A DNA stretch of 64,000 nt. Origin: Patescibacteria group bacterium. GTDB lineage: Bacteria > Patescibacteriota > Minisyncoccia > Phycocordibacterales > PALSA-1337. Position 1 is the stretch's first letter. Every line of letters starts with the position of its first letter. The notes below the pieces were generated by a model. It searched no databases, was not told the origin of the DNA, and saw nothing but the letters and a program-made list of their open reading frames with translations. The stretch lies in contig JAGXAG010000001.1 in assembly GCA_018971685.1 (NCBI GenBank), positions 90,396 to 154,395 on the forward strand. The letters run 5' to 3'. Below, one piece after another: positions 28,403-52,347 of this stretch. Both the position numbers and the translations under genes were made by a program.

Positions 28403-29257
28403 ATGAAATCATACCGCCCCACAACTCCATCGCGCAGACATATGACGGTTTTGCCATTCAAGCAGTATTTGACGGCTTCGGAACCGCATAAGCCGCTGAC
28501 CAGAGGTTTCAAAAGGGACATGGGCCGCAACAGCCACGGCCGTATCACCGTGCGCCACAAGGGCGGCGGACACAAGAAACTGTATCGCATCGTCGATTTC
28601 CTTTATGACAAGAAGAATATTCCGGCCAAAGTCATGACCGTGGAATATGATCCGTTTCGGACCGGTTATATCGGCCTGGTTGCTTATAAGGACGGCGAAA
28701 AGCGTTATACGCTTTTGCCCAAGACGATGAAAACCGGCGATTCGTTCATGGTATCGGAAAATGCGGCCATAGAGACGGGCAATAGGTTGCCGCTAAAAAG
28801 TATTCCGGTGGGTACCTTCATCTTTAATATCGAAGTCAGGCCCGGTGGCGGCGCGAAACTGGTCCGTTCGGCCGGTTCATTCGCCCAAGTGATCGCCAAT
28901 GACGCCGGTTATACTCATATCAAGATGCCTTCTACGGAAGTTCGCAAAATTCATGAAAACGCTTGGGCGTCGGTAGGCGCCGTATCGAACGAAGAAAATC
29001 ATTTGGTGCATATTGGCAAAGCCGGCCGCACCCGCTGGCTGGGTATCCGCCCGACGGTGCGTGGCTCGGTTATGAACCCGGTTGATCATCCTTACGGCGG
29101 CGGCGAACAGAGGACGGGACGCGGTCTGCGCCGGTTAAAGACGATGTGGGGCAAACCGGCCGGCAAAGGCCAGAAGACGCGCACGCCGAAGAAATATTCC
29201 AATGTTTTTATCGTTTCGCGCCGCCAAGTCGGCAAGAAGAAGTCCGCGGCCGAATAA
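28403..29257 (+). CDS. rplB: 50S ribosomal protein L2
   Basis: MKSYRPTTPSRRHM...GGGHKKLYRI...HPYGGGEQRT. Confidence 0.95.
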   Translation: MKSYRPTTPSRRHMTVLPFKQYLTASEPHKPLTRGFKRDMGRNSHGRITVRHKGGGHKKLYRIVDFLYDKKNIPAKVMTVEYDPFRTGYIGLVAYKDGEKRYTLLPKTMKTGDSFMVSENAAIETGNRLPLKSIPVGTFIFNIEVRPGGGAKLVRSAGSFAQVIANDAGYTHIKMPSTEVRKIHENAWASVGAVSNEENHLVHIGKAGRTRWLGIRPTVRGSVMNPVDHPYGGGEQRTGRGLRRLKTMWGKPAGKGQKTRTPKKYSNVFIVSRRQVGKKKSAAE

Positions 29258-33887: not shown

Positions 33888-34103
33888 GTGGTTATGAGTA
33901 AAATAACCATATCAAAAACCGAATATTCAAACCTAAAGAAACAGTCGAAAGCTTATAGAGTTGTCATGGCCAGATTATTCGAGTTGTTGATAAAAGATCC
34001 CGTCAAATCAGTCGTAGACGATTTTCGTAAAATCGGCCTGTATTCTGACGGATTCCTGTCCGATCTGGAAGCGGGATTGCGCAAATCTTCCTACGGTGGT
34101 TAA
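33888..34103 (+). CDS. Putative antitoxin partner of the YoeB-like toxin
   Basis: Small ORF 8 nt upstream of the toxin gene; no strong motif. Confidence 0.3.
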   Translation: MVMSKITISKTEYSNLKKQSKAYRVVMARLFELLIKDPVKSVVDDFRKIGLYSDGFLSDLEAGLRKSSYGG

Positions 34104-34111
34104 TCAACGGC

Positions 34112-34363
34112 ATGAAAATTGAACCTCTTCGGAGAGATCTTCTTGAATATTTGAACAGCCACAAGCTTGCCTCCAAATGGAAGAAGTCCGCAAGATTATT
34201 TGAGACTAATGTGCGCCATCCGTCACTTCATGTGGAATTGCTGGAGCCGAAATGGCACGGCATTTATTCTTTCAGGATTGATAAAAAATATCGCGCCCTG
34301 TTTTTCATAGTAGACGGAGCTTCTGCGGAAGTATTTCAGATTACCAATCATTACAAGAAATAA
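34112..34363 (+). CDS. YoeB/Txe-like (RelE/ParE superfamily) toxin
   Basis: C-terminal LEPKWHGIYSFRIDKKYRALFFIVDG...VFQITNHY resembles YoeB E.LK..G.WSRRI...RLVY..D....I...YHY. Confidence 0.5.
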   Translation: MKIEPLRRDLLEYLNSHKLASKWKKSARLFETNVRHPSLHVELLEPKWHGIYSFRIDKKYRALFFIVDGASAEVFQITNHYKK

Positions 34364-35197: not shown

Positions 35198-36436
35198 ATG
35201 ACTTACAAACATATATTCAATACGGCGATCAGAGGACTGTCGACCAACCGGTCGCGCTCTTTCCTGACGATTTTCGGCATAGTGATCGGCATCACGGCGA
35301 TCATGCTGGTGGTGTCTTTGGGCGCGGGCGCGCAGGATCTGATACTCGGCCAGGTGCAGGGTCTGGGCACGAATACCATAGCCGTTATTCCCGGCAGGGA
35401 ACCGACCGGACCGTCCGATGTGACCGCCCTATACAGCGACTCGCTCAAGGACAAGGACATAACCGCGCTCACCAATAAAGGCAATGTGCCGTATTTGAAA
35501 AGCATCATGCCCGTGGTCTTCGGCGCCGGCGCTTCGTCTTACGGTTCCAATACCTATCAAGTGACCATATTCGGCGGCACCGATCTCGTCGCCGAAGTAT
35601 TCGATCTGCATCCGTCCGAAGGCCAGTTTTTTGACGCCAGCGACGTGCCGTCCCGTTCAAATGTGGCGGTCATCGGTTCCGATGTCGTCGATCACTTGTT
35701 CGACGGGCAAGATCCTGTAGGGCAAAATATCAAAGTAAAGAGCCGGAACCTGCGCGTGGTGGGCGTATTGCCCAAGTCCGGCGGCGGCACTCTCTTCAAT
35801 TTCGATTCTATGGTCATAATGCCGTATACTACGGCGCAGGATTACATTCTGGGTCAGAAATATTTCAGCCGCATAATCATACAAACCGAGACGGATGCGG
35901 AAGTGGCGGTTACGGCCGAGGACATCAAGCTCACCCTACGGGATTCTCACGGGATCACCGATCCGACCAAGGACGACTTTACGGTCCAAACACAGCAGGA
36001 TCTGGCCAACAGGCTGGGAACGATCACTTCGGCGCTCACCTGGTTCCTGGTGGCGGTGGCATCAATCGCGCTTTTTGTCGGCGGCGTCGGCATCATGAAT
36101 ATCATGCTGGTGGCGGTGACGGAACGCACGCGGGAGATCGGCCTTCGGAAAGCGCTGGGCGCGACGGATCGCGATATTCTGTCGCAATTCTTGCTGGAAG
36201 CGGTCTTGCTCACGGCGATCGGCGGAGCGATCGGGATATTCTTGGGGACGGTGTTAGCGTTCGTGATCTCGGTCGGCCTTTCGAAAGGCCTGGGCGTGAA
36301 CTGGCAGTATGTTTTCCCTTGGGGCGGCGCGCTCTTGGGTTTCGGCGTGTCGGCGCTCGTCGGTCTTGTTTTCGGCGGCTATCCGGCCAGCCAAGCGAGC
36401 AAAAAGAGTCCGATCGAGGCGTTACGGTATGAGTGA
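35198..36436 (+). CDS. ABC transporter permease, FtsX-like (MacB-type)
   Basis: MacB_PCD-like periplasmic domain plus the C-terminal four-TM FtsX domain. Confidence 0.85.
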   Translation: MTYKHIFNTAIRGLSTNRSRSFLTIFGIVIGITAIMLVVSLGAGAQDLILGQVQGLGTNTIAVIPGREPTGPSDVTALYSDSLKDKDITALTNKGNVPYLKSIMPVVFGAGASSYGSNTYQVTIFGGTDLVAEVFDLHPSEGQFFDASDVPSRSNVAVIGSDVVDHLFDGQDPVGQNIKVKSRNLRVVGVLPKSGGGTLFNFDSMVIMPYTTAQDYILGQKYFSRIIIQTETDAEVAVTAEDIKLTLRDSHGITDPTKDDFTVQTQQDLANRLGTITSALTWFLVAVASIALFVGGVGIMNIMLVAVTERTREIGLRKALGATDRDILSQFLLEAVLLTAIGGAIGIFLGTVLAFVISVGLSKGLGVNWQYVFPWGGALLGFGVSALVGLVFGGYPASQASKKSPIEALRYE

Positions 36437-36437
36437 G
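36375..36437. repeat. Left copy of the ~63-bp direct repeat (permease 3' end) bounding the DGR island
   Basis: ggcggctatccggccagccaagcgagcaaaaagagtccgatcga... repeated at 42331-42393 (44 nt identical, then 5 mismatches); both encode GGYPASQASKKSPIEALRYE*. Confidence 0.9.
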
Positions 36438-36552
36438 GCATTGTTCCAAGTTTTCTCTTTCATATAAAATAATAACGGCGATCTTAAAGACGCTTAAATT
36501 ATCCACAGGTAAATCTTAAATTCGGCGTTGTTTTTTTGTTATAATTTGATTC

Positions 36553-37572
36553 ATGAAGAGAGCGATTGTCATGATTTCTTTCGGTTCGGTATTGATTCTT
36601 ACCCCGTTTTTTGAGGTTATGGCGGCTGGGTATGGAGATACCGGTTGGGGGATAACGGCTACGGTTACCAATGCATGGCAAAGCGTAGTATGTACGGTGG
36701 GATCGTGGATGTCGATAGCCCCGGCGTATTGCGGTTATGAAGAGAAAGCGGCCAACAAACCGACAGTACCAAAGACACCGTCATTAAACACCGTCATTTC
36801 CCGTGATTCAATCGGCTCAAGGCAAATCGCCGAACCGGTTCAAACATCACGGTTTTTGTCACCGACGGTGCCGTCTGTATCAGGTAAGGCCGATATCCAA
36901 TCGATAGTGAACGAAGCCGTAGCTGTGGCTTTATCTAAACTCCAGATCCCCGCCAACCAATCGCCAAGTCCCGCCGATATCACCGGTCGCGCATCGACTT
37001 CCCCAACCAATTATGCCAATACTATTCCACCGGACATATACCGTTTTGTTTCCGATCAGGCCTCATCGAACGGTTACAGTGCAGGTCAAGCCGTATCGAA
37101 CAGTGCATCGGCCATAACCTCCGCATATACTTCCGCCATATCAGACGCCGTTACCGGCGGGCTTACCGCCTTCGATGGTTCGACTCTGCATGCGGGTACA
37201 AGCACCTTAGGCCAACTTACGGCAGGATCAACCACACTCTCAAGCCTAAATGTATCCGGAAATGCTGCCGTAACAGGCGCTCTCACTGTCGGTTCTCTGG
37301 TTTCGGGCGGTCAGACCATAGGAGGTAACTTCGGTGTTAGTGGCACGACCACCCTAGCTACTACAACGGTTAGCAATCTATCGGCTTCAACTATGAGTAT
37401 TGGTTCATTGAGCGGTATACTATATGGGAACAATGGGATTGTCGGGACTACCAGTTTGTCCAGTCTCACTTCAAACATTATATCCACACAAGGCAATACT
37501 ATAACTTCAAATATAAACGGTGTACAGGCTAGCGCCTTATTGCCGTATGCGTCGGCTTCGAGCGACGGTTAG
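36553..37572 (+). CDS. N-terminal part of the DGR target protein (signal peptide plus S/T-rich repeat region), ended by an in-frame TAG
   Basis: Signal peptide MKRAIVMISFGSVLILTPFFEVMAAG; the TAGSTTLSSLNVSG repeat continues as TAGSTTLSSLSVTG in the next ORF, in the same frame. Confidence 0.5.
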   Translation: MKRAIVMISFGSVLILTPFFEVMAAGYGDTGWGITATVTNAWQSVVCTVGSWMSIAPAYCGYEEKAANKPTVPKTPSLNTVISRDSIGSRQIAEPVQTSRFLSPTVPSVSGKADIQSIVNEAVAVALSKLQIPANQSPSPADITGRASTSPTNYANTIPPDIYRFVSDQASSNGYSAGQAVSNSASAITSAYTSAISDAVTGGLTAFDGSTLHAGTSTLGQLTAGSTTLSSLNVSGNAAVTGALTVGSLVSGGQTIGGNFGVSGTTTLATTTVSNLSASTMSIGSLSGILYGNNGIVGTTSLSSLTSNIISTQGNTITSNINGVQASALLPYASASSDG

Positions 37573-37623
37573 GTTTCCACCACCACCCAGTCATTTTCCG
37601 GTAACAAGAATTTCTCAGGATCA

Positions 37624-38457
37624 TTGACGGCAGGTTCGACCACACTATCATCGCTGTCAGTCACAGGTTCGACATCTTTGGCGTCGCTTGCAGTCAGCGG
37701 CGTTACGGCATTGTCAGGTCCTCTTACGGTCTCTCTCGGTAGCCTGTCCGGGTCTGATACTTATTATGATATGAGTAAAATAGCAAATTACAATCAAATG
37801 TCCATAAGCTCCGGACAGATACAACTGTCTCTGGCGTGGACTTGTGGAAGTCACACTCTGGTAGGCCCAGACGGTTTGACCTATGGTACTGTCGTCGGGG
37901 CTGACGGCAACTGCTGGCTGGACAGGAACCTAGGCGCTACGGAAGTAGCCACAGCCTACAACGATGCCAATGCATATGGTTACTACTATCAATGGGGACG
38001 CGGTATGGATGGCCACCAGATATCTACCAGTTTGACCACAAATACTCTATCCTCCACTGACCAGCCGGGCAACAGCAATTTCATATTGGCGCCAAGCTCT
38101 CCTTATGACTGGCGTAGTCCGCAGAATAACAATCTATGGCAAGGAGCGTCGGGAGTAAACAATCCTTGTCCGAATGGATTCCGCTTGCCGACTAACCAGG
38201 AATGGTCGAACCTGGTATCGGCGGCGGGAATTACCGATTACTCAACAGCTTTCAGTTCCTCATTGAAACTAACACTAGCCGGCGACCGCGACTACTCCTC
38301 CGGTAGTCTCAGCCCTCAGGGAGGTTTCGGTCTCTACTGGTCGAGCTCAGTCTCCGGTGCGAATGCTTTCTCCCTGTACTTCAGCTCTTCCGGGGTTAGC
38401 CCTTCGTACTCGTACTACCGGGCCTACGGCTTCTCGGTTCGTTGTATAAAGAATTGA
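37624..38457 (+). CDS. DGR variable (target) protein with a C-type-lectin/FGE-like fold and C-terminal VR
   Basis: TTG start in frame with the upstream ORF; C-terminal ...YWSSSVSGANAFSLYFSSSGVSPSYSYYRAYGFSVRCIKN is a variable-repeat copy of the TR. Confidence 0.75.
   Translation: MTAGSTTLSSLSVTGSTSLASLAVSGVTALSGPLTVSLGSLSGSDTYYDMSKIANYNQMSISSGQIQLSLAWTCGSHTLVGPDGLTYGTVVGADGNCWLDRNLGATEVATAYNDANAYGYYYQWGRGMDGHQISTSLTTNTLSSTDQPGNSNFILAPSSPYDWRSPQNNNLWQGASGVNNPCPNGFRLPTNQEWSNLVSAAGITDYSTAFSSSLKLTLAGDRDYSSGSLSPQGGFGLYWSSSVSGANAFSLYFSSSGVSPSYSYYRAYGFSVRCIKN
38277..38451 (+). repeat. DGR variable repeat (VR)
   Basis: About 170 nt homologous to the TR; 19 mismatches, every one at a TR adenine; 3' ends identical (ggcttctcggttcgttgtataaag). 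Confidence 0.85.
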
Positions 38458-38486
38458 CAATTTATCAATTTGACAATTAAAAAATT

Positions 38487-39209
38487 ATGGCGCTCTACTA
38501 CACATTGCCGATATACAAATCTAGTTACAAACTTGCTTTCTTGTTGTTCGATGCCTCTACCCATTTTGCCAGAGAGTATAAATATACTGTTGGTCAGCAA
38601 TTGAAAGACGAAGCGATGAAATTGGTTAAAAATGTGTATAGAGCCAATAAAGCTATTGATAAAAATTGTGCCATAAATGAGGCGAGAGAAAATGCGGAAA
38701 TGATACGGCTGATGGTCCGTCTGATGAAGGATTTCAATCAGCTTAGCCTGAAAAAATTCCTGGAAATCAATCTGTGCATAGAAGATGTGTCCAAGCAACT
38801 CACTTCTTGGGGAAAGAGCTTTAGGACAAAATTATCAATACCGCCTGAATCGTCTGTAGCCAGAGCCCAGACGAGCGTGCGGAGCAAATTCAATGGCCCC
38901 CTTGCCTCATCAGGCAAGGAATATCGTCCGGATCACGGATGTGTTTCGCCGTCCCGTACTCATGGGGAAGGTGCGACAAATACAGAGGCCATAATCACAG
39001 TAGCCGGCTACCGCGACAACTCCTCCGGTAGTCTCAACAATCAGGGAGGTAACGGTAACTACTGGTCGAGCTCAGTCTCCGGTACGAATGCTTTCAACCT
39101 GAACTTCAACTCTTCCGGGGTTAACCCTTCGAACACGAACAACCGGGCCAACGGCTTCTCGGTTCGTTGTATAAAGCATTTGCAAATAGCGTATGAAAAA
39201 GTCAATTAA
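38487..39209 (+). CDS. avd: Avd-like accessory variability determinant (first ~115 aa) in an ORF that reads through the TR
   Basis: Helical, basic N-terminal part (about 115 aa) at the position of Avd; the rest of the ORF is TR sequence in an open frame. Confidence 0.5.
   Translation: MALYYTLPIYKSSYKLAFLLFDASTHFAREYKYTVGQQLKDEAMKLVKNVYRANKAIDKNCAINEARENAEMIRLMVRLMKDFNQLSLKKFLEINLCIEDVSKQLTSWGKSFRTKLSIPPESSVARAQTSVRSKFNGPLASSGKEYRPDHGCVSPSRTHGEGATNTEAIITVAGYRDNSSGSLNNQGGNGNYWSSSVSGTNAFNLNFNSSGVNPSNTNNRANGFSVRCIKHLQIAYEKVN
39002..39176 (+). repeat. DGR template repeat (TR)
   Basis: Adenine-rich (AAC codons: NNQGGNGNYW...NLNFN...NTNNRAN) counterpart of the VR, immediately upstream of the RT. 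Confidence 0.85.
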
Positions 39210-40377
39210 CGACAACCCGCAACTACTTTTGAACTTGTTCAAGGCATATTATGATGCCCGTAGGCACAAGGGTTTGTCTGCCAATGTTCTGGCTTTTTCG
39301 GCTGATTATGAGAGCAAATTATTCAAACTCTATGAAGATATTCTAGATCGAAGATATGTCATAGGGCCAAGCGTATGCTTCATCGTCAATCGGCCGGTAA
39401 AGCGAGAAATATTCGCCGCCGACTTTCGCGACAGGGTTGTTCATCATCTAATATTCAATTATCTCAATCCTATAGTTGAGAGAGATTTTATAAAGGATAG
39501 TTATAGTTGCAGATTGGGGAAAGGCACTTCTTATGGCGTGCGCAGAGTTAATCATTTTCTGCATTCTTGCTCAGAGAACTATACTCACGAGTGTTGGATC
39601 ATGAAACTGGATATACGAGGTTACTTTATGTCTATGAATAAAGATATTCTATACGGCAAGGTAAAAGAAGTCGTCGATAAGGCGAGAAATATATCTTTTG
39701 ACAAGGAACTCCTCATGTATCTGGTGAATAAAGTTGTATACCACGATCCTGTCACTAATTGTCGTATAAAAGGCGACAGATCAGACTGGGTGGGATTGCC
39801 AAAATCAAAAAGTTTGTTTTTCGCCGAAAAGAACCGAGGATTTCCTATAGGGAATCTCACTAGTCAACTATTCGGGAATATATACATGAATAGGTTCGAC
39901 CATATAATAAAGGAAGATCACAATTTTAAGCATTATGGCCGATATGTTGATGATATGATCTTCGTGCATAAAGACAAGGGGACATTGGCGTCCACGATCC
40001 CGATCGTAAAAAAGTATCTTTTTGAAGAACTTGGGTTGGAATTACATACCAAAAAGATATATTTACAGCCGTCTGCTGTCGGTGTTAGCTTTTTGGGGGC
40101 TTACATAAAGCGATGGTGCCAATATGTCGGAAAAAAGACCAAGACTAATTGTTATACTAGAATCAGTAGGTGGAATTCAGAAGTTAATAAAAACAGCTAC
40201 GACAAGTTTTTATCTTCGATGAATTCATATCTTGGATTTATGAGCCAATACGATACTTATAGGCTTCGCCAGAAAGTCATGTCAAAATTAAGCCGCCAGA
40301 TTGTATCGAAACTGATCATTTCCAAAGATTTTTCTTCGATAAAAATAAATTCTGCAGCGAATACATTACGAACATGA
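39193..40377 (+). CDS. DGR reverse transcriptase
   Basis: RT domain with the IGNLTSQ motif characteristic of DGR RTs and YVDDMIF (YxDD) in the catalytic box; adjacent TR/VR. Confidence 0.9.
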   Translation: MKKSINDNPQLLLNLFKAYYDARRHKGLSANVLAFSADYESKLFKLYEDILDRRYVIGPSVCFIVNRPVKREIFAADFRDRVVHHLIFNYLNPIVERDFIKDSYSCRLGKGTSYGVRRVNHFLHSCSENYTHECWIMKLDIRGYFMSMNKDILYGKVKEVVDKARNISFDKELLMYLVNKVVYHDPVTNCRIKGDRSDWVGLPKSKSLFFAEKNRGFPIGNLTSQLFGNIYMNRFDHIIKEDHNFKHYGRYVDDMIFVHKDKGTLASTIPIVKKYLFEELGLELHTKKIYLQPSAVGVSFLGAYIKRWCQYVGKKTKTNCYTRISRWNSEVNKNSYDKFLSSMNSYLGFMSQYDTYRLRQKVMSKLSRQIVSKLIISKDFSSIKINSAANTLRT

Positions 40378-42326
40378 GAAACAAGCCATCAACAATTCGA
40401 GCGATTGTCACGACGGTTATTATACCAGCAATAGGATTTGCAATACTTTTAGGTATGACGCCAGCCATGGTTATGGCTTCCGCGACCTACTTTTCTTCCG
40501 GTACTGTCAGCTCGACTAACTTACTATCAGGCAGCACAGCATCGTCCATAAACGACTTCTATTACAACTTGTCATCTCTTCCGGGCAACTCAAGTGTTAC
40601 GGTCCAATTCAGCCAAGACGGAACAAATTGGTATTCGGCCGCCGGTACGCTCAACGCTTCCACGAGTATTTCTACCATCGGCGGGGCTACGATCGATCTG
40701 TCAGCTTTGCACTGGTCCGGTTCGTCTTTCTACTATAAGTTTACTTTCTATGCCACTACCGATCAAACCGGCACGCCGGTCATAAACGGAGTCAGAGTCG
40801 ATTATTCGACATCCGGTTCGAATGGCGGCATATTCGCCATAAATAACGGCGGCCACATAGCGGTGGGTACGACTTCTGCCCTGTCGACTCTCGACATAGC
40901 GGGCGGTACAGCCATAGGGACTTATGCCGGCACCGCCGCCGCTCCCAATAACAGTTTGATATTGAGCGGTTTTTTGGGCGTGGGTACTTCTACTCCATCC
41001 AGCAAACTTACCGTGGCGGGAGACGGTTATCTATCCGGCAATCTGACGGTCAACGGCTCGCTCAGCGTGGCTGGTTCTCTATTCCAGATCAACTCTAACG
41101 GAACTTTTACGGCGTCGAGCACGCAAGCTTCGGCGGCTACATCCACCGTATACGGCAATCTCAATGTTACCGGCAACCTGCACGGCCAGACTATTACTTC
41201 GGGCGATCTTGTATTCGCGAACGCTTTCCGGTTCACTGAAGCGCGGCTCGACGGTTCACCACAAGGTATTTTGCTCAAGAATCAGTATGGTTCGACAACT
41301 TTGTCTGTAGATGAGAACGGCAATCTAACCGTTTTGGGCGACATATGTTCCAATGGGAATGTTTCATGTTGGGGCAGATCCATAGTCGATCTGAACAGCG
41401 GCCTAGCTTCTCTGGCTTCATCTACCATGCTTGATATATCCGCCAATGCCGCTTCTACTACGAGGTCGATGTCCGAACTATCTTCAGATATCGACAAGAT
41501 CGACTGGTCTTTGAATCGTGTGTCTTCGAGGTTAGATGCACTGGCTTCATCCAGTCTGACTATGTCCGCTCTGGCCTCGGCCACCGATGCCATGGCCTCT
41601 TCGGCCGGATCGATCTTGGCTTCTTCGACATCGTTCATCCAGAGCGTATCCCAAGCCGTTAACAGCGCCATCCAGTCCACAGGTCAATGGCTTGCGAACC
41701 AAATAACGGTTGCCAAGGGTATCTTTACCGAGCTTACAGCCGGCAAGGCTGACATTCAGACGGCCAATATTCAAACGCTCTGTATCGGCCAGACTTGCGT
41801 GTCAGAGAGCCAATTCAAGGCGATGTTGGCGCACGAGAATGTGACGCCGGTCCAACCATCCCCGATGTCGGCGCAGAGCAGTTCGACGAACATTACGACT
41901 GATACTGCGACAGCTCCCGCTGCCACGACCGCTTCTACGACAATGCCTGCGGCTGTGTCGGCAGGTACCTCTATAATTGCAACTTCATCCACTGACCGGG
42001 CAGATCAGACAGCGACCACTTCTGTAGGCGTTGTTCCCGCGGCTTCTACGACATCAGCCACGATCATGGTTTCGGAAGCTTCCGGAACATCGACTGCCGC
42101 CGCGGTATCAGAGACTTCAACCACTTCAACGGCAACGGTTTATACAACTCTGCCGATCATGAGTTCGACCACTACGGTATCTGCCCCGGTTGAACCGGCG
42201 GCATCGTCCGTTTCCGAATCGTCGACCACGGCGGTCGACCGTGTTTCCGCGGCTCCCACACCAATCACAGATATGACTACCACCGGCACCGCTCCTGCGC
42301 AGGCGTCAACTTCAGCGGCCCACTAA
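40374..42326 (+). CDS. Large S/T-rich surface protein (fibre-like), co-transcribed with the RT
   Basis: N-terminal TM anchor; G/S/T-rich beta-repeat region (LTVNGSLSVAGS...); T/S/A-rich C-terminus; the ATG overlaps the RT stop (ATGA). Confidence 0.6.
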   Translation: MRNKPSTIRAIVTTVIIPAIGFAILLGMTPAMVMASATYFSSGTVSSTNLLSGSTASSINDFYYNLSSLPGNSSVTVQFSQDGTNWYSAAGTLNASTSISTIGGATIDLSALHWSGSSFYYKFTFYATTDQTGTPVINGVRVDYSTSGSNGGIFAINNGGHIAVGTTSALSTLDIAGGTAIGTYAGTAAAPNNSLILSGFLGVGTSTPSSKLTVAGDGYLSGNLTVNGSLSVAGSLFQINSNGTFTASSTQASAATSTVYGNLNVTGNLHGQTITSGDLVFANAFRFTEARLDGSPQGILLKNQYGSTTLSVDENGNLTVLGDICSNGNVSCWGRSIVDLNSGLASLASSTMLDISANAASTTRSMSELSSDIDKIDWSLNRVSSRLDALASSSLTMSALASATDAMASSAGSILASSTSFIQSVSQAVNSAIQSTGQWLANQITVAKGIFTELTAGKADIQTANIQTLCIGQTCVSESQFKAMLAHENVTPVQPSPMSAQSSSTNITTDTATAPAATTASTTMPAAVSAGTSIIATSSTDRADQTATTSVGVVPAASTTSATIMVSEASGTSTAAAVSETSTTSTATVYTTLPIMSSTTTVSAPVEPAASSVSESSTTAVDRVSAAPTPITDMTTTGTAPAQASTSAAH

Positions 42327-42330
42327 GAGT

Positions 42331-42393
42331 GGCGGCGGCTATCCGGCCAGCCAAGCGAGCAAAAAGAGTCCGATCGAAGCCCTCCGGTATGAG
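42331..42393. repeat. Right copy of the direct repeat bounding the DGR island
   Basis: See 36375-36437. Confidence 0.9.
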
Positions 42394-42682
42394 TGATTGA
42401 AATTTCGCGCGATGTCAGCCGATAAACCATTCGTGGGCCGGCACGATCTCTATTTTTGCGCCATCGAGTTCAATAACCTCTTTCCAGAAATTTATTATGT
42501 CTCTTATTTTTTCGTCGTTTTTTGTGGTCATGTTTAAGTCAAGTATATGTTACTAAATACTATAAAATAAGTCAAGTATACATGACTTATTTGTAAATCT
42601 CTCAAGAAATCCAAGTATTAAGCCATTTTTTGTCATTTTTTTATCGCAATTAATTAACAGTGACTATTATTGTGCGCATCAA

Positions 42683-47209: not shown

Positions 47210-49198
47210 ATGACGCAAAAGGAGGCATTGGAAATATTGAAGACCGGCGCGAATGTTTTCTTGACAGGCGCGGCCGGAAGCGGCAAGACGCACATCCTGC
47301 GGGAATATTTGGCGTGTTTGAAAGAGCGTAAAATCCCGGTCGGAGTGACGGCTTCGACCGGCATTGCCGCCACGCATATGGGCGGAGTCACCATACATTC
47401 ATGGTCCGGAATAGGAGTCAAAGACCAATTGAGTGATTGGGACATAGACGAAATATCGCAGCGGGAAAAATTATCGGCCAGAATAAACGCCGCCAAAGTA
47501 CTGGTGATCGACGAAATCTCGATGCTGCACCACTATCAGCTGGACATGGTGAACCGCGTGCTCAAGTCTGTGCGCAATTCGCCGGAGCCGTTCGGCGGAT
47601 TGCAGGCGGTCGTCTGCGGGGACTTCTTCCAACTGCCGCCGGTCTCGCGCCGGCCGAGATCGTTCGACGCGGACGGGATGCTCTTTATCGACGACGATTA
47701 TGATGCGGACGGCAAAGCCAGGTTCGCGTACCATTCGCGGGCGTGGCGGGAGGCGGAGTTTGCGGTGTGCTATTTGGAGGAAAATTACAGGCAAAGCGAC
47801 GAACAATATTTGCAGGTGTTGAACGCGATCAGGAATTCCGCGGTCACCGATGAAATCGTTGAAATCTTGAAGAGTCGATTCAAGGCGGCAATTCCGCCGT
47901 CTGCTCTGCCAAATAAAGCGGTTGCCGAAGCGTCCCGCGGCACAAGTTTTTTGAGTTCCGCGACTCCGCCGCGAAGCAATCCGTCGCCGCGTTTCCCAAC
48001 CGACAAGTCCGTGTATGTCCGAGAGGGCTTGTCGGTTGCGGAAACGCCGACGGTTGCGAGCGGCATTCGCGGAACTCAAAAAACTTGTGCCGCGGGACGC
48101 GAATCTGTTACCAGATTGTATTCTCATAACGCCAATGTCGACGCGGAGAACGAGCGGGAGCTGGCGAAATTGAAAACGCCTTTGCAAAAATACGAAATGA
48201 CCGGGCGCGGCAAGAGACATTTGGTCGAAGCGCTCAAGAAGAGCTGTCTGGCGCCGGAAGTGTTGAAATTGAAAGATGGCGCCAAAGTGATGTTCGTGAA
48301 GAATAATTTCGAAAAAGGATTCGTGAACGGCACTACCGGGATCGTGAAGAAATGCACGCCGTTCGAAATCGTGGTGGCGACCGATAAAGGGCATGTGCGG
48401 GTCGAAACGGAGTCGTGGCACATCGAAGACAACGGCAAAATCCTGGCGGAAATCGAGCAGTACCCTCTGCGGCTGGCTTGGGCGATAACGATACACAAAA
48501 GCCAAGGCATGTCGCTGGATGCGGCGGAAATCGATCTGTCTCAGTCGTTCGAAAAAGGCATGGGCTATGTGGCGCTTTCCAGGGTGAAAACTTTGGATGG
48601 TCTATCGCTTTCCGGCCTGAATAAAACCGCGCTTGAGATACACGGAGAGGCGTTGGAGTACGACAAATCATTCAGGGAACAATCGGACAGAGCGGCGGCG
48701 GAATTGGCGGTTATGCCGGAAGAGGAATTGAAGAGAAGGCAAACAGGATTCTTGGGGCCGGAGCCGGCGCGCACAAATATGACCAGAAAATCCCACGCCT
48801 CGCGAAGCGAGGTACCCCCTTTTTCAAAGGGGGATTTCGCGCGGCGAGACCAGGAAACTGGTTCTGCGAATGGGTCCAGAGAACCGAAAATACCGACGAC
48901 GGAACGAACAAGGCGATTATTGGATGCCGGAATGACGGTGGGAGAAGCGGCGGCGGCCAGGGGGTTGAAGGCGGAGACTATCATCAACCATATCGGACTG
49001 ATCAAGCGCGCGGATGATTCTTGGGACATTTCGAGGTTCAGATCAATCATACCGGCCGACAGACTGGAGAAGATCATTGAAGCGTTCAACGGATCGAAAC
49101 CGGGCGCGGACGGCTTGCCGCCGCTCACTCCGGTAAAACAAAGATTGGGCGCGGGGTATTCGTATGAGGAGATAAAAATCGCGAGGCTGTTCCTGTGA
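47210..49198 (+). CDS. Pif1/RecD-family ATP-dependent DNA helicase
   Basis: Walker A FLTGAAGSGKTHIL, VLVIDEISML, GDFFQLPPV, TIHKSQGMSLD motifs; C-terminal HTH-like region. Confidence 0.8.
   Translation: MTQKEALEILKTGANVFLTGAAGSGKTHILREYLACLKERKIPVGVTASTGIAATHMGGVTIHSWSGIGVKDQLSDWDIDEISQREKLSARINAAKVLVIDEISMLHHYQLDMVNRVLKSVRNSPEPFGGLQAVVCGDFFQLPPVSRRPRSFDADGMLFIDDDYDADGKARFAYHSRAWREAEFAVCYLEENYRQSDEQYLQVLNAIRNSAVTDEIVEILKSRFKAAIPPSALPNKAVAEASRGTSFLSSATPPRSNPSPRFPTDKSVYVREGLSVAETPTVASGIRGTQKTCAAGRESVTRLYSHNANVDAENERELAKLKTPLQKYEMTGRGKRHLVEALKKSCLAPEVLKLKDGAKVMFVKNNFEKGFVNGTTGIVKKCTPFEIVVATDKGHVRVETESWHIEDNGKILAEIEQYPLRLAWAITIHKSQGMSLDAAEIDLSQSFEKGMGYVALSRVKTLDGLSLSGLNKTALEIHGEALEYDKSFREQSDRAAAELAVMPEEELKRRQTGFLGPEPARTNMTRKSHASRSEVPPFSKGDFARRDQETGSANGSREPKIPTTERTRRLLDAGMTVGEAAAARGLKAETIINHIGLIKRADDSWDISRFRSIIPADRLEKIIEAFNGSKPGADGLPPLTPVKQRLGAGYSYEEIKIARLFL
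47931..48099. repeat. Nested palindromic element inserted in-frame in the helicase CDS
   Basis: 32-nt perfect inverted arms (cgtcccgcggcacaagttttttgagttccgcg ... cgcggaactcaaaaaacttgtgccgcgggacg) flank about 105 nt that themselves hold imperfect inverted repeats. Confidence 0.85.
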
Positions 49199-49246
49199 GA
49201 GCAACTTTTTTATCAAAGGCGAAGTAATATATGTATTATAAAGGTA

Positions 49247-49843
49247 ATGACAAAAACAAACATGGCAAACAAAAATAAAGAAATATTGAAGATCGCAATA
49301 ATTATAGGTAGCACCAGGCCGGGCAGATTTGGCGACAAGCCGGCCAAGTGGATATACGAAGAGGCGAAAAGAACGGACGGGGTAGAGGCGGAATTGCTGG
49401 ATTTGCGGGATTATCCGATGCCTTTTTACGCCGAAGACCATTCGTTCAGCATGAATCCGGCGGTTTCCGACCAAACGGCGGAGAAATGGCAGGCGAAAAT
49501 CGGCGCGGCGGACGCTTTTGTCATCGTCACGCCGGAATACAACCACGGCCCCTCGGCAGTCTTGAAGAACGCGCTCGACTATGCGTACCGCGAATGGAAC
49601 GACAAGCCGGTTGCTTTCGTCGCTTATGGCAGTGTGGGCGGCGCCCGCGCGGTGGAACAATTGCGGCTGGTCGCGATCGAACTGCAAATGGCGCCGATCC
49701 GAAACGCGGTGCACATTCCGGCGCCGTGGTTCTTGGTTGACGGCAAAGGCGATCTGAAGCCGAATGCCCTGGATCCATTCAAGGACGCGGCAAAAAATAT
49801 GCTGGAACAACTGGTAAGATGGGGGAGGGTGATGAAAAGATAG
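49247..49843 (+). CDS. NAD(P)H-dependent FMN reductase (flavodoxin-like, SsuE/YieF family)
   Basis: IAIIIGSTRPGRF... and VIVTPEYNHGPSAVLKNALDY motifs. Confidence 0.8.
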   Translation: MTKTNMANKNKEILKIAIIIGSTRPGRFGDKPAKWIYEEAKRTDGVEAELLDLRDYPMPFYAEDHSFSMNPAVSDQTAEKWQAKIGAADAFVIVTPEYNHGPSAVLKNALDYAYREWNDKPVAFVAYGSVGGARAVEQLRLVAIELQMAPIRNAVHIPAPWFLVDGKGDLKPNALDPFKDAAKNMLEQLVRWGRVMKR

Positions 49844-50214
49844 ATTCAGAGCTAGATAAAGGGTGGGTACAAATTGTACATACCCTTAGCATAAACACTG
49901 CAGGAGGGACGCTGAAAGTGCTTTGTGCCAATACCGAGGGCATATTCCGCATCATTCAATCTATTCCATCGCCCAAGGCTGAGCCGTTCAAACGCTGGCT
50001 GGCGAGGGTTGGCTACGAGCGCATTCAGGAGATTGAAGACCCGGAGCTGGCCACCAAGCGCACCCGCGCCCTTTATAAAGCCAAGGGCTATGATGATGCC
50101 TGGATCGAGAAGCGCATGCGCGGTATTGCCGTTCGCGAAAAATTGACCGATGAGTGGCAGAAACGGGGGATTAGACTCTCAGGATTCGCGACCTATTGTC
50201 GTAAATTCAGTTGA
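49819..50214 (+). pseudogene. Remnant of a Bro-N/DinD-like (phage antirepressor-type) protein lacking its N-terminus
   Basis: SPKAEPFKRWLA resembles the Bro-N KPEAKxFKRWV motif; the first ~60 aa of the domain are missing; overlaps the end of the FMN reductase gene. Confidence 0.35.
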
Positions 50215-50277
50215 GTCCGCAATCCACAAGGAATTGCGGTGTGCAGATTTTATTTTCGGTATCTACACAGTTGACCG

Positions 50278-50508
50278 TTAGGTTTTGATAAAACCCTGAA
50301 AATCTTCGGCTGGAACGGCGCCCCATCCTCTGGGAACATTGTCGACGATGCTCACAGCGATAATGGAACTCTTTCCCAGCTTTCCAATTTCCGTTCGGAC
50401 CTTCTCAACAAAAGCGTCGGCTTCTTCGGTACCCTTGAGAGGACCGTAAAAGCTTCGACTCGTGCTAGAAGTTCCGACACCAGTTAGGATAAGTGCGTAC
50501 TTTTCCAT
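50278..50508 (-). CDS. Hypothetical 76-aa protein, second gene of an unknown two-gene operon
   Basis: ATG 1 nt after the upstream gene's TAA; no recognisable domain. Confidence 0.35.
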   Translation of the reverse strand: MEKYALILTGVGTSSTSRSFYGPLKGTEEADAFVEKVRTEIGKLGKSSIIAVSIVDNVPRGWGAVPAEDFQGFIKT

Positions 50509-50509
50509 G

Positions 50510-51676
50510 TTAACAAACTTCGCTAAGCGCTCCCTTGGGTAACGACCCCTGTGGCAACCTGTCCTTGCGAACTATGCACGGTCTTACCTGCACGATTTTC
50601 GGTGCGGACGGATTGTCTCCTGTGCCAGGCGCTCGCCGCCAGTGACCTCGACGGAAGTGTGCCGATATTTCGACCAGTGTTGAACGCGCACTTGAAGAAA
50701 TCACTCTGAGAGCTTCTTTCTCATCAGTTGATAACTTGTGACAGAAATCAACCGAGCAAACGAGCGCTTCCTTTGTGATAACAGTCGCGTCTTTGGTCGG
50801 ATTCGGCACTCTCTGCCAATCACTTGCATGGCTTGACTCCGAGGGCAGGGTTTTGAGATATAGGCATAAGCCCACGACAAGACGCTTAATCATTTCGAAC
50901 TCAGCGTGCTCATCGAAGTTTTCGATGCGTGTCTCGTTTGTGACCTTGTCGAAATACTCGATACCATCACTCTGCTCCTCCGTAACTTTCCCGAATGTGT
51001 ACGGGATGTACGAAACGGCGGCGAATGTATCGGCTTTCTGGTCACTTGCCTTGGCGAGTAGTTCACTCGCAGTACCCCAACGGCGTTTACTGATCGCTTC
51101 CCGAATCCGCTGACGCACATACGGGGAGATTGCAGGAATTTCGCAGTAGCCTGGCGCAAATGCACGAATGCACATGGTATCTTCCTTGCACGCAATCCCC
51201 GTCTCTCGCGAGAATAGGATGCAGTCAAGTTGATGTCCACGAGAATCGCGGATCGGCGTCTCCAGGGTGATAGCGAATGAATCGAATGGCCAAGGCACCT
51301 CATCCCAACAAATGTCAGAAAGAGAAGTGGCCATCAGAATGTGGGCGAGATCGGACGACAGATGGAACACTCGCCGGGAATACTTGGTCCAAGCAGTCAG
51401 ACTGCAGGGTAAGAATTCCAGAAAGTGACCGGCTGTCGCCACGGCCTTGCGGACCTCGTCAACTCCGACATACTTGCTGTAGTCAAACTCTTCCGAGTGG
51501 CATTTGAGCAAGTACTTGCGGAAATTGAAGGCGTTAACCAGAGGACCTTGTTCGGGTAGAACAAGGTCGGGATGTTGACCGCTTGCCCTGCTTAGGATTG
51601 ACTCCGTTTGCAGGTGAAAGCAGTAGTTTTCCCAACGGCGCAGAGCGCCTTCGAGGTGCAGAATGTTCGTTTTCAT
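50510..51676 (-). CDS. Hypothetical 388-aa protein (unknown function; possible defence/accessory gene)
   Basis: Long ORF with no recognised motifs; Cys-rich central region; sits between RhuM/Bro-N-like remnants. Confidence 0.4.
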   Translation of the reverse strand: MKTNILHLEGALRRWENYCFHLQTESILSRASGQHPDLVLPEQGPLVNAFNFRKYLLKCHSEEFDYSKYVGVDEVRKAVATAGHFLEFLPCSLTAWTKYSRRVFHLSSDLAHILMATSLSDICWDEVPWPFDSFAITLETPIRDSRGHQLDCILFSRETGIACKEDTMCIRAFAPGYCEIPAISPYVRQRIREAISKRRWGTASELLAKASDQKADTFAAVSYIPYTFGKVTEEQSDGIEYFDKVTNETRIENFDEHAEFEMIKRLVVGLCLYLKTLPSESSHASDWQRVPNPTKDATVITKEALVCSVDFCHKLSTDEKEALRVISSSARSTLVEISAHFRRGHWRRAPGTGDNPSAPKIVQVRPCIVRKDRLPQGSLPKGALSEVC

Positions 51677-51980
51677 GCTGTTTCAATGTTCTGTTCAGTG
51701 ACTTCCGAAAATTTACCTCTTGTAAGTATAGCATACTACGACATAAAAATCAAGAGCTGTCTAACAAGCTGCGGAATTATACAAGGAATTATAGAGATGG
51801 GAAAATAAATCCGGAAAATGACTGAAGCAGAACATTTTCGGCGGGTTTGGTGTAGAATATTCGCATGAATGACGAAAATGGCGAAAAAATTGATGAAAGT
51901 ATTCAGAGCGCGCCTGATAAGATGAAAAATAAATAAACTATGAAAAAGAAGCATATACAAAAGAATGTGGTGATATTCTA

Positions 51981-52154
51981 ATGGACAGAGAATTGGATGC
52001 CAATTCAGTATGTGCAAATTTTGCACATACTGCCGAGGACGGAAAAACATACCAAGTCAGATTTTATAATCTCGATGTTATCTTGTCTGTCGGGTACAGA
52101 ACCAATTCAGTACGGGCAGTAGAATTTAGGAAATGGACAATGTCCGATTACTGA
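51981..52154 (+). pseudogene. Fragment of a RhuM-family (Virulence_RhuM) gene
   Basis: DGKTYQVRFYNLDVILSVGYRTNSVRAVEFRKW matches the RhuM core (YNLDaIIsVGYRV.S..g.qFR.WAT); an upstream in-frame TAA and a premature stop after 57 aa. Confidence 0.5.
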
Positions 52155-52347
52155 AGTCCGACCTCAGTAATCCAAAAGAAAAACGATTAACTAACCGCTA
52201 TTGACGAAAACCCCCAAGGTTTGCTAGTATCAAAATACCTCAAAAAGGCAGTTTGCGAGGAAATGATTGGAAGCAGGCCGCGCGGCGGGAACGAAAAGCC
52301 GGCGGGGAGCTAACCAATCAAATTTTAATTGAGGAAATAAACAATTC

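Follow-up and report, generated by a model that had tools for sequence, protein, structure and literature searches.

The question raised by this locus is whether the target gene, avd, template repeat (TR) and reverse transcriptase (RT) gene found in a 64-kb window, the whole stretch of DNA analysed, form a genuine diversity-generating retroelement (DGR), and in what state this element is preserved. Our analysis confirmed a genuine DGR, a known kind of system, in a Patescibacteria genome, with tests supporting the presence of each defining component (Table 1). We assign a probability of about 0.9 to a chromosomal DGR in the order target-avd-TR-RT, which is a common DGR gene order, with the mechanism proposed below and the split state of its target included. 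An earlier note on this DNA had described a complete DGR and guessed at a CPR host. The host guess holds, since NCBI lists the source genome as 'Patescibacteria group bacterium', and RT, Avd, TR, variable repeat (VR) and target were all found, but the target frame is broken by an in-frame TAG. This split target, the read-through of the Avd frame, an upstream RNA that would close the TR and a bracketed 5.96-kb cassette are new relative to that note.

Table 1. Features of the DGR locus (positions in the window).
Feature	Position	Strand	Remarks
Left copy of 64-nt direct repeat	36373..36436	+	Repeat family D2, both copies translated
Target, N-terminal part, 339 aa	36553..37572	+	Ends at in-frame TAG 37570-37572
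Target, C-terminal part with VR at its end	37624..38457	+	FISUMP / Fib_succ_major domain
VR	38277..38451	+	Mismatch table; strictly A-only part 38285-38451
IMH-like 3' flank of VR (AATTGACA)	38452..38459	+	TR/VR 3'-end comparison, 20 loci
Avd four-helix-bundle domain	38487..38831	+	PF22296 bAvd, phrog_3206
Structured RNA domain of DGR transcript, RT-7-like	38843..38999	+	Rfam RF03028, covariation, RNAfold
Helix P0	38843-44/38879-80	+	Structured RNA domain
Helix P1	38850-56/38868-74	+	Structured RNA domain
Strand J	38884-38891	+	Structured RNA domain
Helix P2	38892-98/38987-93	+	Structured RNA domain
Helix P3	38900-07/38912-19	+	Structured RNA domain
TR	39002..39176	+	175 nt; repeat search and mismatch table
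J' (GCATTTGC)	39176..39183	+	Last TR nucleotide and IMH*-like 3' flank; pairs with J
DGR RT, 394 aa	39193..40377	+	17-nt overlap with end of Avd-TR ORF, +1 frame
650-aa cassette protein	40374..42326	+	ORF listing; ATG overlaps RT stop (ATGA)
Right copy of 64-nt direct repeat	42333..42396	+	6 nt past stop of 650-aa ORF

Repeats and reverse transcriptase

TR and VR lie within a direct repeat of 189 nt with an offset of 725 (38272-38460 and 38997-39185), in which the homology begins at about 38997 and the first 13 nt contain two non-A mismatches. Between the TR and the VR as delimited in Table 1 there are 20 mismatches, 19 at TR adenines, as had been counted before, and a single one at T39009 (G38284 in the VR, Tyr to Asp), which lies 8 nt in from the 5' edge and by which the earlier figure of zero non-A mismatches was off. 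Over the 167 nt of 38285-38451 the TR has 42 adenines, and none of the 19 mismatches lies outside these (hypergeometric p = 9e-14); each mismatch is at codon position 1 or 2 of the ORF 37624-38457. At the protein level 13 of the 14 TR Asn codons are changed in the VR, to Y, S, F, L or P, and two Thr codons to A or S; the Y, S, F and L previously listed as Asn replacements were recovered, whereas Val is absent and Pro present. When the TR was compared by BLAST with the whole window, only one VR and no second copy was found. The 3' ends follow an IMH/IMH*-like boundary pattern in the 20 loci compared, and the VR flank, which includes the stop TGA 38455-38457, carries non-A differences from its TR counterpart. 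Two features differ from the BPP-1 DGR, in that avd here has no stop codon and that a hairpin 3' of the VR, an element of BPP-1, is not predicted (z = -0.15).

The assignment of the RT to the DGR clade, proposed earlier from its IGNLTSQ and YVDD motifs, was upheld. These motifs align with IGxLTSQ/YxDD and are invariant across 32 RT homologues, the best PDB match is the Bordetella-phage bRT (8ub7_A, E 6.5e-27), in which I181/G182/Q187/D215/D216 agree with the published bRT residues (bioRxiv 10.1101/2023.10.23.563531), and phrog_1423 is matched with E 3e-91. Most RT relatives adjoin Avd, and about 50 of 80 related genome loci contain an A-biased (T-biased if reversed) TR/VR pair beside the RT, the loci lacking such a pair being mostly short contigs. 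In the window the Avd domain reaches 52 bits with PF22296 bAvd (cut-off 40) and E 9e-17 with phrog_3206 ('Avd protein of DGR'), while the match to NCBIfam NF033474 is below its cut-off. A retron, a group II intron or a defence RT placed beside a repeat by chance is effectively refuted as an explanation of the locus: the NCBIfam matches to group II, retron and DRT models that could speak for it are sub-threshold only and all far under their cut-offs, and the A-only mismatch pattern (p of about 1e-13), the adjacent Avd, bRT as the best solved relative and relatives that are themselves DGRs all stand against it.

By its avd-TR-RT architecture the locus falls into family B, which accounts for 68% of catalogued DGRs (Wu et al., 2018). 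With the CPR/Patescibacteria DGRs of the CLec2 / Fib_succ_major-DUF1566 target class (category 'd' in Wu et al., 2018, with the Legionella DGR as exemplar; Paul et al., 2017) the locus shares its CPR host and a VR in a Fib_succ_major-type CLec domain. However, 90% of the CPR set of Wu et al. (2018) has the sub-architecture B3 and is only distant kin of other DGRs, whereas the RT studied here clusters at 45-60% identity with RTs of CPR as well as Bacteroidota, Ignavibacteria and Omnitrophota genomes. Although the system is of a known kind, its split target and upstream RNA scaffold set it apart from the textbook DGR.

A target gene split by an in-frame stop codon

Comparison of sequences indicates that a single ancestral target gene has been divided by the TAG at 37570-37572. 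The ORFs 36553-37572 and 37624-38457 share one frame and their repeat style persists past the stop, a homologue of 765 aa (P0249) aligns to both, with one local alignment crossing the TAG, and in related cassettes the target is one long ORF. TAG terminates 11 of the 60 long ORFs in the window, the rpsC ORF among these. The upstream ORF encodes a hydrophobic N-terminus and a Ser/Thr-rich stalk, and the downstream ORF comprises 277 aa from a TTG or 228 aa from ATG 37771; because of the TAG the VR-bearing ORF is separated from the hydrophobic anchor, and its product, if made, is without it. The VR corresponds to the last approximately 58 residues of the FISUMP domain. Modelling gave this C-terminus the C-type-lectin fold of the FISUMP / Fib_succ_major family, in agreement with what had been claimed for it, as was its terminal sequence GFSVRCIKN. 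The solved DGR variable proteins TvpA of Treponema denticola and TaqVP of Thermus have only 10-15% sequence identity to the target and belong to another Pfam family, of the FGE-sulfatase type.

These observations bear on whether the locus is a relic, in which the TAG inactivated the target, the VR is frozen and nothing useful is diversified now. Judged by the upstream ORF, called at 339 aa or 333 aa, each of the six recorded contigs carries the in-frame TAG, single-ORF targets are intact in related cassettes, and the description of the VR as hypervariable was not borne out: it is 100% identical to the window in the two contigs compared at the DNA level, and among the proteins that cluster with the target at 90%, which come from four NCBI protein accessions and Logan, there are start-call variants only and no variant target protein on record. 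We nevertheless regard a relic as possible but not the probable state, as the RT, the Avd domain, the RNA helices and the TR have each stayed intact, and the fact that 167 nt of TR/VR are free of non-A mismatches argues for recent or continuing overwriting of the VR. Moreover, a promoter-like site (10/12 match) at 37624-37651 lies upstream of ATG 37771 and therefore leaves a truncated product possible.

The RNA between avd and the template

The region between avd and the TR matches the Rfam model RF03028 (RT-7) over its full length (model positions 1-191; E 4e-9) with helices P0/P1, P2 and P3 and an adjoining RT gene; however, its 44.2 bits do not reach the gathering score of 116.8, for which there was likewise no match in 17 related loci, and the model ends at the TR and lacks the J:J' pairing. 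RT-7 is one of 19 'RT' motifs near RT genes with unassigned function, among which only RT-10, the BPP-1 spacer RNA, was assigned to a DGR and others were speculated to act in other DGRs (Weinberg et al., 2017). When 20 loci were aligned with MAFFT, 88.8% of the helix positions were paired compared to 36-47% when slid, and both sides had changed in 21 of 25 pairs (0/500 shuffles). RNAfold again gave P1, P2 and P3, and the covariance model R1 retrieved 26 more matches (E<=0.01), almost all of which precede related RT genes. The structure is found family-wide. The J:J' helix, which is absent from the MFE fold, pairs in 92.5% of cells across the 20 loci relative to 20-50% in other registers (0/2000 shuffles), and in independent strong matches of the model at least 7 of 8 pairs formed in 10 of 13, with new compensatory variants. 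This covariation shows an upstream RNA predicted to close the 5' end of the TR and to pair with its 3' flank.

In BPP-1, with the order mtd-avd-TR-brt, primer and stop duplexes flank the TR, both strands being provided by a spacer RNA of about 140 nt between TR and brt (Handa et al., bioRxiv 10.1101/2023.10.23.563531). The likeness lies in the two-duplex topology around the TR, whereas here the RNA is located between avd and TR, on the far side of the template compared with the textbook case, and a chromosomal FISUMP fibre protein takes the place of the phage tail-fibre tip as target. Judged from covariation and the BPP-1 cryo-EM model, J and the TR 3' flank would form the template:primer duplex, and P2, followed by P3 and an A-rich stretch, would provide the stop duplex at the 5' end of the TR, leaving the latter as a loop between two adjacent duplexes. 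An RT-Avd complex may bind this RNA and reverse-transcribe the TR, misincorporating at random opposite adenines, and the cDNA would then replace the VR, direction being given by the TR-specific IMH*-like 3' flank versus the IMH-like VR flank. The priming role of J is suggested by analogy; the would-be priming position is C or U here and A in BPP-1. Since the BPP-1 primer is located 3' of the TR, and hairpins directly follow J' in many relatives with longer TR-RT gaps, cDNA might instead be primed by RNA hidden in the 5' coding sequence of the RT, the upstream domain serving only to bind protein or stop synthesis. We consider this unlikely on three counts: TR and RT are 16 nt apart in the window, and for most of the family this gap is 6-116 nt; the TR 3' flank covaries with the upstream strand J, whose 3' end points toward the TR; and J runs directly into the helix that closes the TR at its 5' end, an arrangement that mirrors Sp47-56 / Sp59-70 in BPP-1.

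An Avd domain does lie between VR and TR as formerly described, but its ORF runs on across the structured RNA and the TR to 39209 (240 aa), and neither a stop codon nor a terminator-like site occurs in the avd-RNA-TR-RT unit from avd to RT. It is conceivable, though still less likely than downstream priming, that this open frame is functional and yields an Avd with a C-terminal extension including a TR-encoded copy of the lectin tail, or an Avd-TR-RT polyprotein in relatives. Coverage of the 240-aa ORF reaches at least 94% in about 30 protein clusters of 217-260 aa, at least nine clusters of 624-660 aa join Avd, the TR-encoded segment and RT in one ORF, and the linker peptide PPESSvARAQaSvRSKSNNPLA is nearly invariant. 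However, the sequence coding for this peptide is that of helix P1 and its flanks, which vary by compensatory base changes in the wider family, where avd stops ahead of the RNA, and its conservation is thereby explained at the RNA level. In addition, read-through of the TR is seen in about 40% of the close Avd homologues, the rest stopping in the variable part of the RNA, a share close to chance in view of the 38% estimated for approximately 20 unconstrained codons staying open, and a 1:1 fusion would not fit the BPP-1 complex of an Avd pentamer and one bRT. An avd stop precedes the TR in 40 of 42 genome loci, read-through occurring among these only in the window and in its closest relative, and we read it as a by-product of avd stop loss in this sub-lineage. 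The full text of Wu et al. (2018) contains none of the terms 'fused', 'fusion', 'RNA structure' and 'secondary structure'.

An accessory cassette behind a macB-like gene

Two 64-nt direct repeats, identical at 60 positions and with all four differences synonymous, flank the 5.96-kb cassette, the left copy being the 3' end (GGYPASQASKKSPIEALRYE*) of a MacB/FtsX-type permease gene (35198-36436; Pfam MacB_PCD and FtsX). In the relative L164 macB is followed by rpsS 1.65 kb on and the cassette is absent from the syntenic site. Together, the repeats and the cassette-free site indicate that the DGR and the conserved 650-aa fibre-like gene within the repeats constitute a 5.96-kb accessory unit inserted after the macB-like gene. 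The coupling of this gene to the RT, already noted earlier, is evident in the 4-nt ATGA overlap. Its product had no match in Pfam, NCBIfam or PHROG and has a hydrophobic N-terminus and a conserved N-terminal domain, followed by a middle part rich in Ser, Ala and Leu and a tail rich in Ser and Thr. The P0249 cassette has a 650-aa ORF in the same position, and the same-position ORF in L003 shares 58% identity over the N-terminal 230 aa.

The repeat pair, the reverse transcriptase and Avd

A repeat search of the window recovered a 189-nt direct repeat with a spacing of 725 nt, whose two copies contain the variable repeat (VR) at the 3' end of the target gene and the template repeat (TR), respectively. 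When VR and TR were compared position by position, 20 mismatches were counted, 19 of which have A in the TR copy. The adenine-specific pattern reported in the earlier note was thereby borne out, although its statement that non-A mismatches were entirely lacking was off by one, since T39009 in the TR stands against G38284 in the VR, 8 nt inside the 5' edge. Over positions 38285-38451 all mismatches (19/19) fall on the 42 adenines of the 167-nt TR (hypergeometric p = 9e-14), and all 19 changes occupy codon positions 1 or 2 of the VR-bearing ORF. Altered in the VR are 13 of the 14 TR Asn codons and two Thr codons (N to Y, S, F, L or P; T to A or S); Val, which had been listed among the replacements of Asn, is absent. 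No second match to the TR beyond this one VR was found elsewhere in the 64 kb.

Positions of the cassette features and of neighboring elements in the window
Feature	Position	Remark
rplB	28403-29257
Two small adjacent ORFs	33888-34363	71 and 83 aa
Left 64-nt direct repeat	36373-36436	last 64 nt of macB-like gene
Upstream target ORF	36553-37572	339 aa; hydrophobic N-terminus, Ser/Thr-rich
TAG splitting the target	37570-37572
VR-bearing target ORF	37624-38457
Promoter-like site	37624-37651	10/12 match
189-nt direct repeat	38272-38460, 38997-39185
VR	38277-38451
Avd ORF	38487-39209	240 codons
RT-7 match	38843-38999	RNA domain
Helix P1	38850-56/38868-74
Strand J	38884-38891	GCAAATTC
Helix P2	38892-98/38987-93
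Helix P3	38900-07/38912-19
TR	39002-39176
Strand J'	39176-39183	GCATTTGC
RT	39193-40377
650-aa ORF	40374-42326
Right 64-nt direct repeat	42333-42396	6 nt after stop of 650-aa ORF
Small ORF (- strand)	42400-42534	about 40 aa, MTTKNDEKIRDIINFWKEVIELDGAKIEIVPAHEWFIG
20-nt direct repeat	42535-42554, 42568-42587	just beyond the small ORF
rpsS	43596
Pif1/flavodoxin-like/Bro-N block	47210-52300	after rplE
Pif1-like helicase ORF	47210-49198
34-nt inverted repeat	47930-47963, 48067-48100	perfect; arms 103 nt apart

The reverse transcriptase (RT) matches Pfam RVT_1, and its closest solved relative is chain 8ub7_A (E 6.5e-27), in whose numbering IGSLTSQ lies at 181-187 and YMDD at 213-216. These positions coincide with residues I181, G182, Q187, D215 and D216 of bRT, the RT of the reference DGR of Bordetella phage BPP-1, as named in a cryo-EM preprint (Handa et al., bioRxiv 10.1101/2023.10.23.563531). 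The IGNLTSQ (219-225) and YVDD (251-254) motifs of the RT, previously designated as DGR-specific, align to IGSLTSQ and YMDD of bRT and are invariant among 32 homologues. The protein is named 'hypothetical protein [Patescibacteria group bacterium]' at NCBI (assembly GCA_028865255.1), and its nearest homologues are only ~60% identical. Scanning one genome per species, we found 80 related RT loci in CPR phyla, Bacteroidota, Ignavibacteria, Omnitrophota and others. A TR/VR finder of our own located an A-biased repeat pair next to the RT in roughly 50 of the 80, nearly always together with an Avd homologue, while the loci with no detected pair are mostly short contigs. Since its relatives are embedded in DGR cassettes in this way, the RT is a member of a bona fide DGR clade, in keeping with the grouping expected in the earlier note. 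Phage relatives of the RT share at most 49% identity with it and are more distant than the cellular ones.

The helical ORF that had been described as Avd-like matches Pfam PF22296 (bAvd) above the cut-off (52 bits, cut-off 40) as well as the PHROG family 'Avd protein of DGR'. Its score for the NCBIfam Avd equivalog (43) is below the cut-off of 80, and neither sequence nor profile searches found relatives in the PDB. In the scheme of Wu et al. (2018) the DGR of the window belongs to architecture family B and to the Fib_succ_major/DUF1566-type (CLec2) target class. The element itself is one more DGR beside many already catalogued in CPR bacteria.

A structured RNA and an open frame between avd and the RT gene

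The region between avd and the TR matches the Rfam model RF03028 (RT-7) over its full length (44.2 bits, E 4e-9), with the consensus helices of RT-7 and a location adjoining an RT gene. The match lies below the gathering score (44.2 vs 116.8 bits), no Rfam family reaches its gathering threshold in the window, and RT-7 is absent at this threshold from 17 related loci. RT-7 is one of 19 motifs located near RT genes, of which only RT-10, the BPP-1 spacer, was tied to a DGR (Weinberg et al., 2017). Covariation was analyzed in 20 loci, aligned with MAFFT without reference to a structure. Pairing in the four helices amounted to 88.8% across these loci compared to 36-47% when the partner column was slid, changes on both sides were present in 21 of the 25 helix pairs, and the observed values were reached in 0/500 shuffles. 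P1, P2 and P3 were also recovered by RNAfold from the window sequence alone. When loci outside the seed were searched with a covariance model built from the 20-locus alignment, 26 more matches were obtained at E<=0.01; all but one are on the RT strand (25), nearly all lie upstream of a related RT, and about half are found in phage contigs. With these results an orphan class of structured RNA (RT-7-like) would gain a genomic context and a probable function, that of RNA scaffold in a large DGR lineage.

A further pairing connects this RNA with the end of the TR. Strand J, the 8 nt just 5' of helix P2, is complementary to J', which consists of the last TR/VR-homologous base and the TR 3' flank. 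When the 20 loci were compared with conserved Arg-Cys codons as the sole anchor, pairing in this register was seen in 92.5% of the cells versus 20-50% in 13 other registers, a level matched by 0/2000 shuffles across loci, and several positions swap pair type (e.g., A-U/G-C, C-G/A-U). Likewise, 10 of the 13 strong covariance-model hits outside the seed form at least 7 of the 8 pairs in the same register, and new compensatory J/J' variants (TGAGTCC/GGACTCA, TTAAATTT/AAATTTAA) occur among the hits. At the 3' end of TR and VR, about 24 nt that are identical and A-invariant are followed by 8 nt with non-A differences (GCATTTGC in the TR, GAATTGAC in the VR), a pattern that was found in 20 loci. The VR counterpart of J' contains the target stop codon, and the sole breach of A-invariance is an A to G change in the related locus L066, at the base immediately 5' of J'. 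This boundary is an IMH*/IMH-like arrangement, for which we infer a function in directionality. For BPP-1 a hairpin/cruciform just 3' of the VR is described, which to our knowledge is not a universal DGR feature; in the window none was predicted at this site, the DNA fold of 38420-38500 giving -4.8 kcal/mol (z = -0.15).

No stop codon closes the Avd ORF behind the four-helix domain; it continues through the TR, in the frame of the VR, to overlap the RT ATG by 17 nt. Among database proteins, the whole Avd ORF is spanned by about 30 clusters (217-260 aa), and about 40 clusters end earlier. Avd, TR and RT are joined in one ORF in at least 9 clusters of 624-660 aa from relatives outside the window (P0012, P0020, P0021, P0029, P0035, P0039, P0046, P0057, P0060). 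Fused ORFs of the P0012 type comprise Avd, the RNA scaffold, a TR-encoded lectin tail and then the RT, and bear the database label 'reverse transcriptase domain-containing protein'. In 40 of 42 loci with the order Avd-TR-RT, avd ends before the TR; across these 42 loci the avd-TR distance is mostly 140-260 nt and the TR-RT gap mostly 6-116 nt. The linker peptide PPESSvARAQaSvRSKSNNPLA is almost invariant in the Avd clusters and might be regarded as a conserved protein extension, an explanation that was dropped in favor of RNA conservation on the basis of the DNA alignment and the covariation counts. It is helix P1 with its flanking sequence that encodes this peptide. The read-through is thus most simply explained as a side effect that arose when a sub-lineage lost the avd stop, its RNA being open in this frame by chance. 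Annotation pipelines present the Avd-TR(-RT) ORFs as unusual 'four helix bundle' proteins or as fused RT proteins; RNA constraints explain them better.

Comparison with BPP-1 and a proposed permuted RNA

Mutagenic retrohoming is part of the general DGR background. The analysis shows the parts of the element and the order in which they stand, as well as the RNA helices and an A-specific pattern of TR/VR mismatches; under the established DGR model the RT-Avd complex would copy the TR RNA to cDNA with misincorporation opposite adenines, after which the cDNA would replace the VR. In BPP-1 Sp47-56 is paired with the TR 3' end (TR117-129), and its last nucleotide serves as the primer for synthesis. 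The stop duplex is formed two nt further on, between Sp59-70 and the segment avd369-379 that immediately precedes the TR; a short stem-loop and adenosines come next, the TR being looped out between both duplexes (Handa et al., bioRxiv 10.1101/2023.10.23.563531). Similar to this situation, two adjacent duplexes in the window bind the TR 3' end and the TR 5' side to one continuous strand. Along this strand (38884-38898) J:J' is contiguous with P2 and followed by P3 and AAUAU; P2a follows J at once, its pairing partner P2b lying 8 nt ahead of TR coordinate 39002, and the 3' end of J points towards the TR. In contrast to BPP-1, the primer-like/stop strand of the window lies upstream of the TR, and a structured TR-RT spacer is missing, as TR/VR homology ends at 39176 and the RT ATG lies at 39193. 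The same two-duplex arrangement with its strand upstream of the TR leads us to propose a circularly permuted DGR RNA, in which cis-priming would occur from about nucleotide 38891 and the primer strand would span 285 nt to pair with the IMH*-like TR 3' flank. This proposal is an analogy backed by covariation rather than a demonstrated reaction. The survey by Handa et al. (bioRxiv 10.1101/2023.10.23.563531) reached no further than 40 nt upstream of TRs and 100 nt beyond them, so that J would be missed.

Taken together, we give roughly even odds to the following reading. A lineage-wide DGR RNA (in CPR bacteria, Bacteroidota and some phages) would possess a 5' RT-7-related, protein-binding and cis-priming scaffold that is a circular permutation of the BPP-1 RNA, with the primer strand (J) and the stop-duplex strand (38892-38898) placed before the TR. 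In the sub-lineage of the window the avd stop and the TR-RT spacer would have been lost, so that ribosomes translating avd would continue across the scaffold and the TR, and in some relatives into the RT, with translation and templating competing for the same RNA. Such a permuted architecture, which keeps the two-duplex geometry, would represent an independent covariation-based test of the cis-priming/stop-duplex model and could serve as a guide for engineering compact DGRs. In a literature search of incomplete coverage, no description of either an upstream DGR RNA scaffold or Avd-TR-RT fusions was found; novelty is thus unproven. Within this coverage three points may be new, namely the link drawn between DGRs and an RT-7-like RNA, the J:J' pairing and the permuted topology that goes with it, and the repeated occurrence of open Avd-TR(-RT) frames.

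The split target and the cassette in its surroundings

The model of the FISUMP domain closed by the VR has a C-type-lectin fold, consistent with the CLec-like C-terminal domain proposed earlier. The two target ORFs lie in the same frame with one TAG between them, and the translation beyond this TAG keeps the same repeat style. P0249, a 765-aa target homologue from a related cassette, aligns to both ORFs, with one local alignment crossing the stop; its cassette, located between a HepT/MNT pair and mraZ, has the order target (765 aa)-Avd (236)-RT (404)-650-aa ORF. In L003, the closest genome locus, the target ORF comprises at least 1727 aa. The TAG is present in 6/6 public contigs, and its recoding as the cause of the split was rejected, because 11 of the 60 long ORFs in the window, that of rpsC among them, end with TAG. 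With an ordinary TAG, ORFs in the same frame and relatives in which the target is a single ORF, the target in the window is a nonsense-split gene. Its VR-bearing piece is without a signal or anchor of its own, and a promoter-like site is found there (see table). The RT occurs on six contigs; for two of them the DNA was read, and over the VR both match the window at 100%. VR variants were not found among public copies, the 90%-identity protein clusters of the target holding only alternative start calls. Given the identical VRs, the lack of a variant target protein on record and the split target, the activity of this DGR is unproven.

The entire 5.96-kb cassette is bracketed by the two 64-nt direct repeats, the left copy of which completes the macB-like gene. 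The copies agree over the first 45 nt and differ at 4 positions, in each case synonymously, both encoding the MacB C-terminus. Judging from these synonymous-only differences, a simple target-site duplication appears less probable than recombination with a copy that evolved under coding constraint, for example in an att-like or Campbell-type event. Apart from the split target, avd, RT and 650-aa ORF the cassette holds no genes, and no integrase or recombinase was found inside it. In the related contig L164 (MacB 78% identical at the amino acid level) macA-ABC-macB is followed by 1.65 kb of unrelated sequence and then by rpsS-rplV-rpsC, with no cassette at this site (L164 3380-5084); being only ~72% identical at the DNA level, L164 shows cassette absence and not the precise excision point. 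The Logan contig L002 (5975 nt, corresponding to window 36388-42362) was considered as a circular form of the cassette and rejected, as its ends are k=31 unitig breaks at the 45-nt identical repeat core.

The 650-aa ORF overlaps the RT stop and shares 58% identity over 230 aa with the ORF at the same position in L003, and an ORF of 650 aa also follows the RT in the P0249 cassette, so that its product is a conserved cassette member. No family match was obtained for this protein in Pfam, NCBIfam or PHROG, nor any significant similarity to the 339-aa protein; it is a plausible candidate for a fibre-like surface protein. The GC content is 38-39% in avd (38487-38831) and RT and 50-55% in the target, TR, RNA domain, 650-aa gene and the rest of the genome, the value for the genome being 50%.

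The cassette illustrates how a DGR can behave as a separate accessory unit within a ribosomal-protein gene cluster; ribosomal protein genes have been reported inside five CPR DGR cassettes (Wu et al., 2018). The cluster is interrupted for about 14 kb between rplB and rpsS by genes for a TIG-domain protein, a MacA-like adaptor, GH130, two small ORFs, a MacB-type ABC pair, the DGR and a histidine kinase. L164 has the same macAB interruption, without the DGR, the histidine kinase and the later Pif1/flavodoxin/Bro-N block. The two small ORFs upstream of the ABC ATPase gene resemble a toxin-antitoxin pair in size, and the right repeat copy is separated from the histidine kinase gene by another small ORF. 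The inverted repeat in the Pif1-like helicase ORF has a total length of 171 nt, a multiple of 3, leaves the frame open and could be a small inverted-repeat element inserted in frame. Related DGR cassettes occur in many different genomic contexts, adjoining a 16S rRNA gene (L018 5498-6747), group II intron fragments (L016 1344-1402 and 5930-6045) or a tRNA cluster (L007 46-448).
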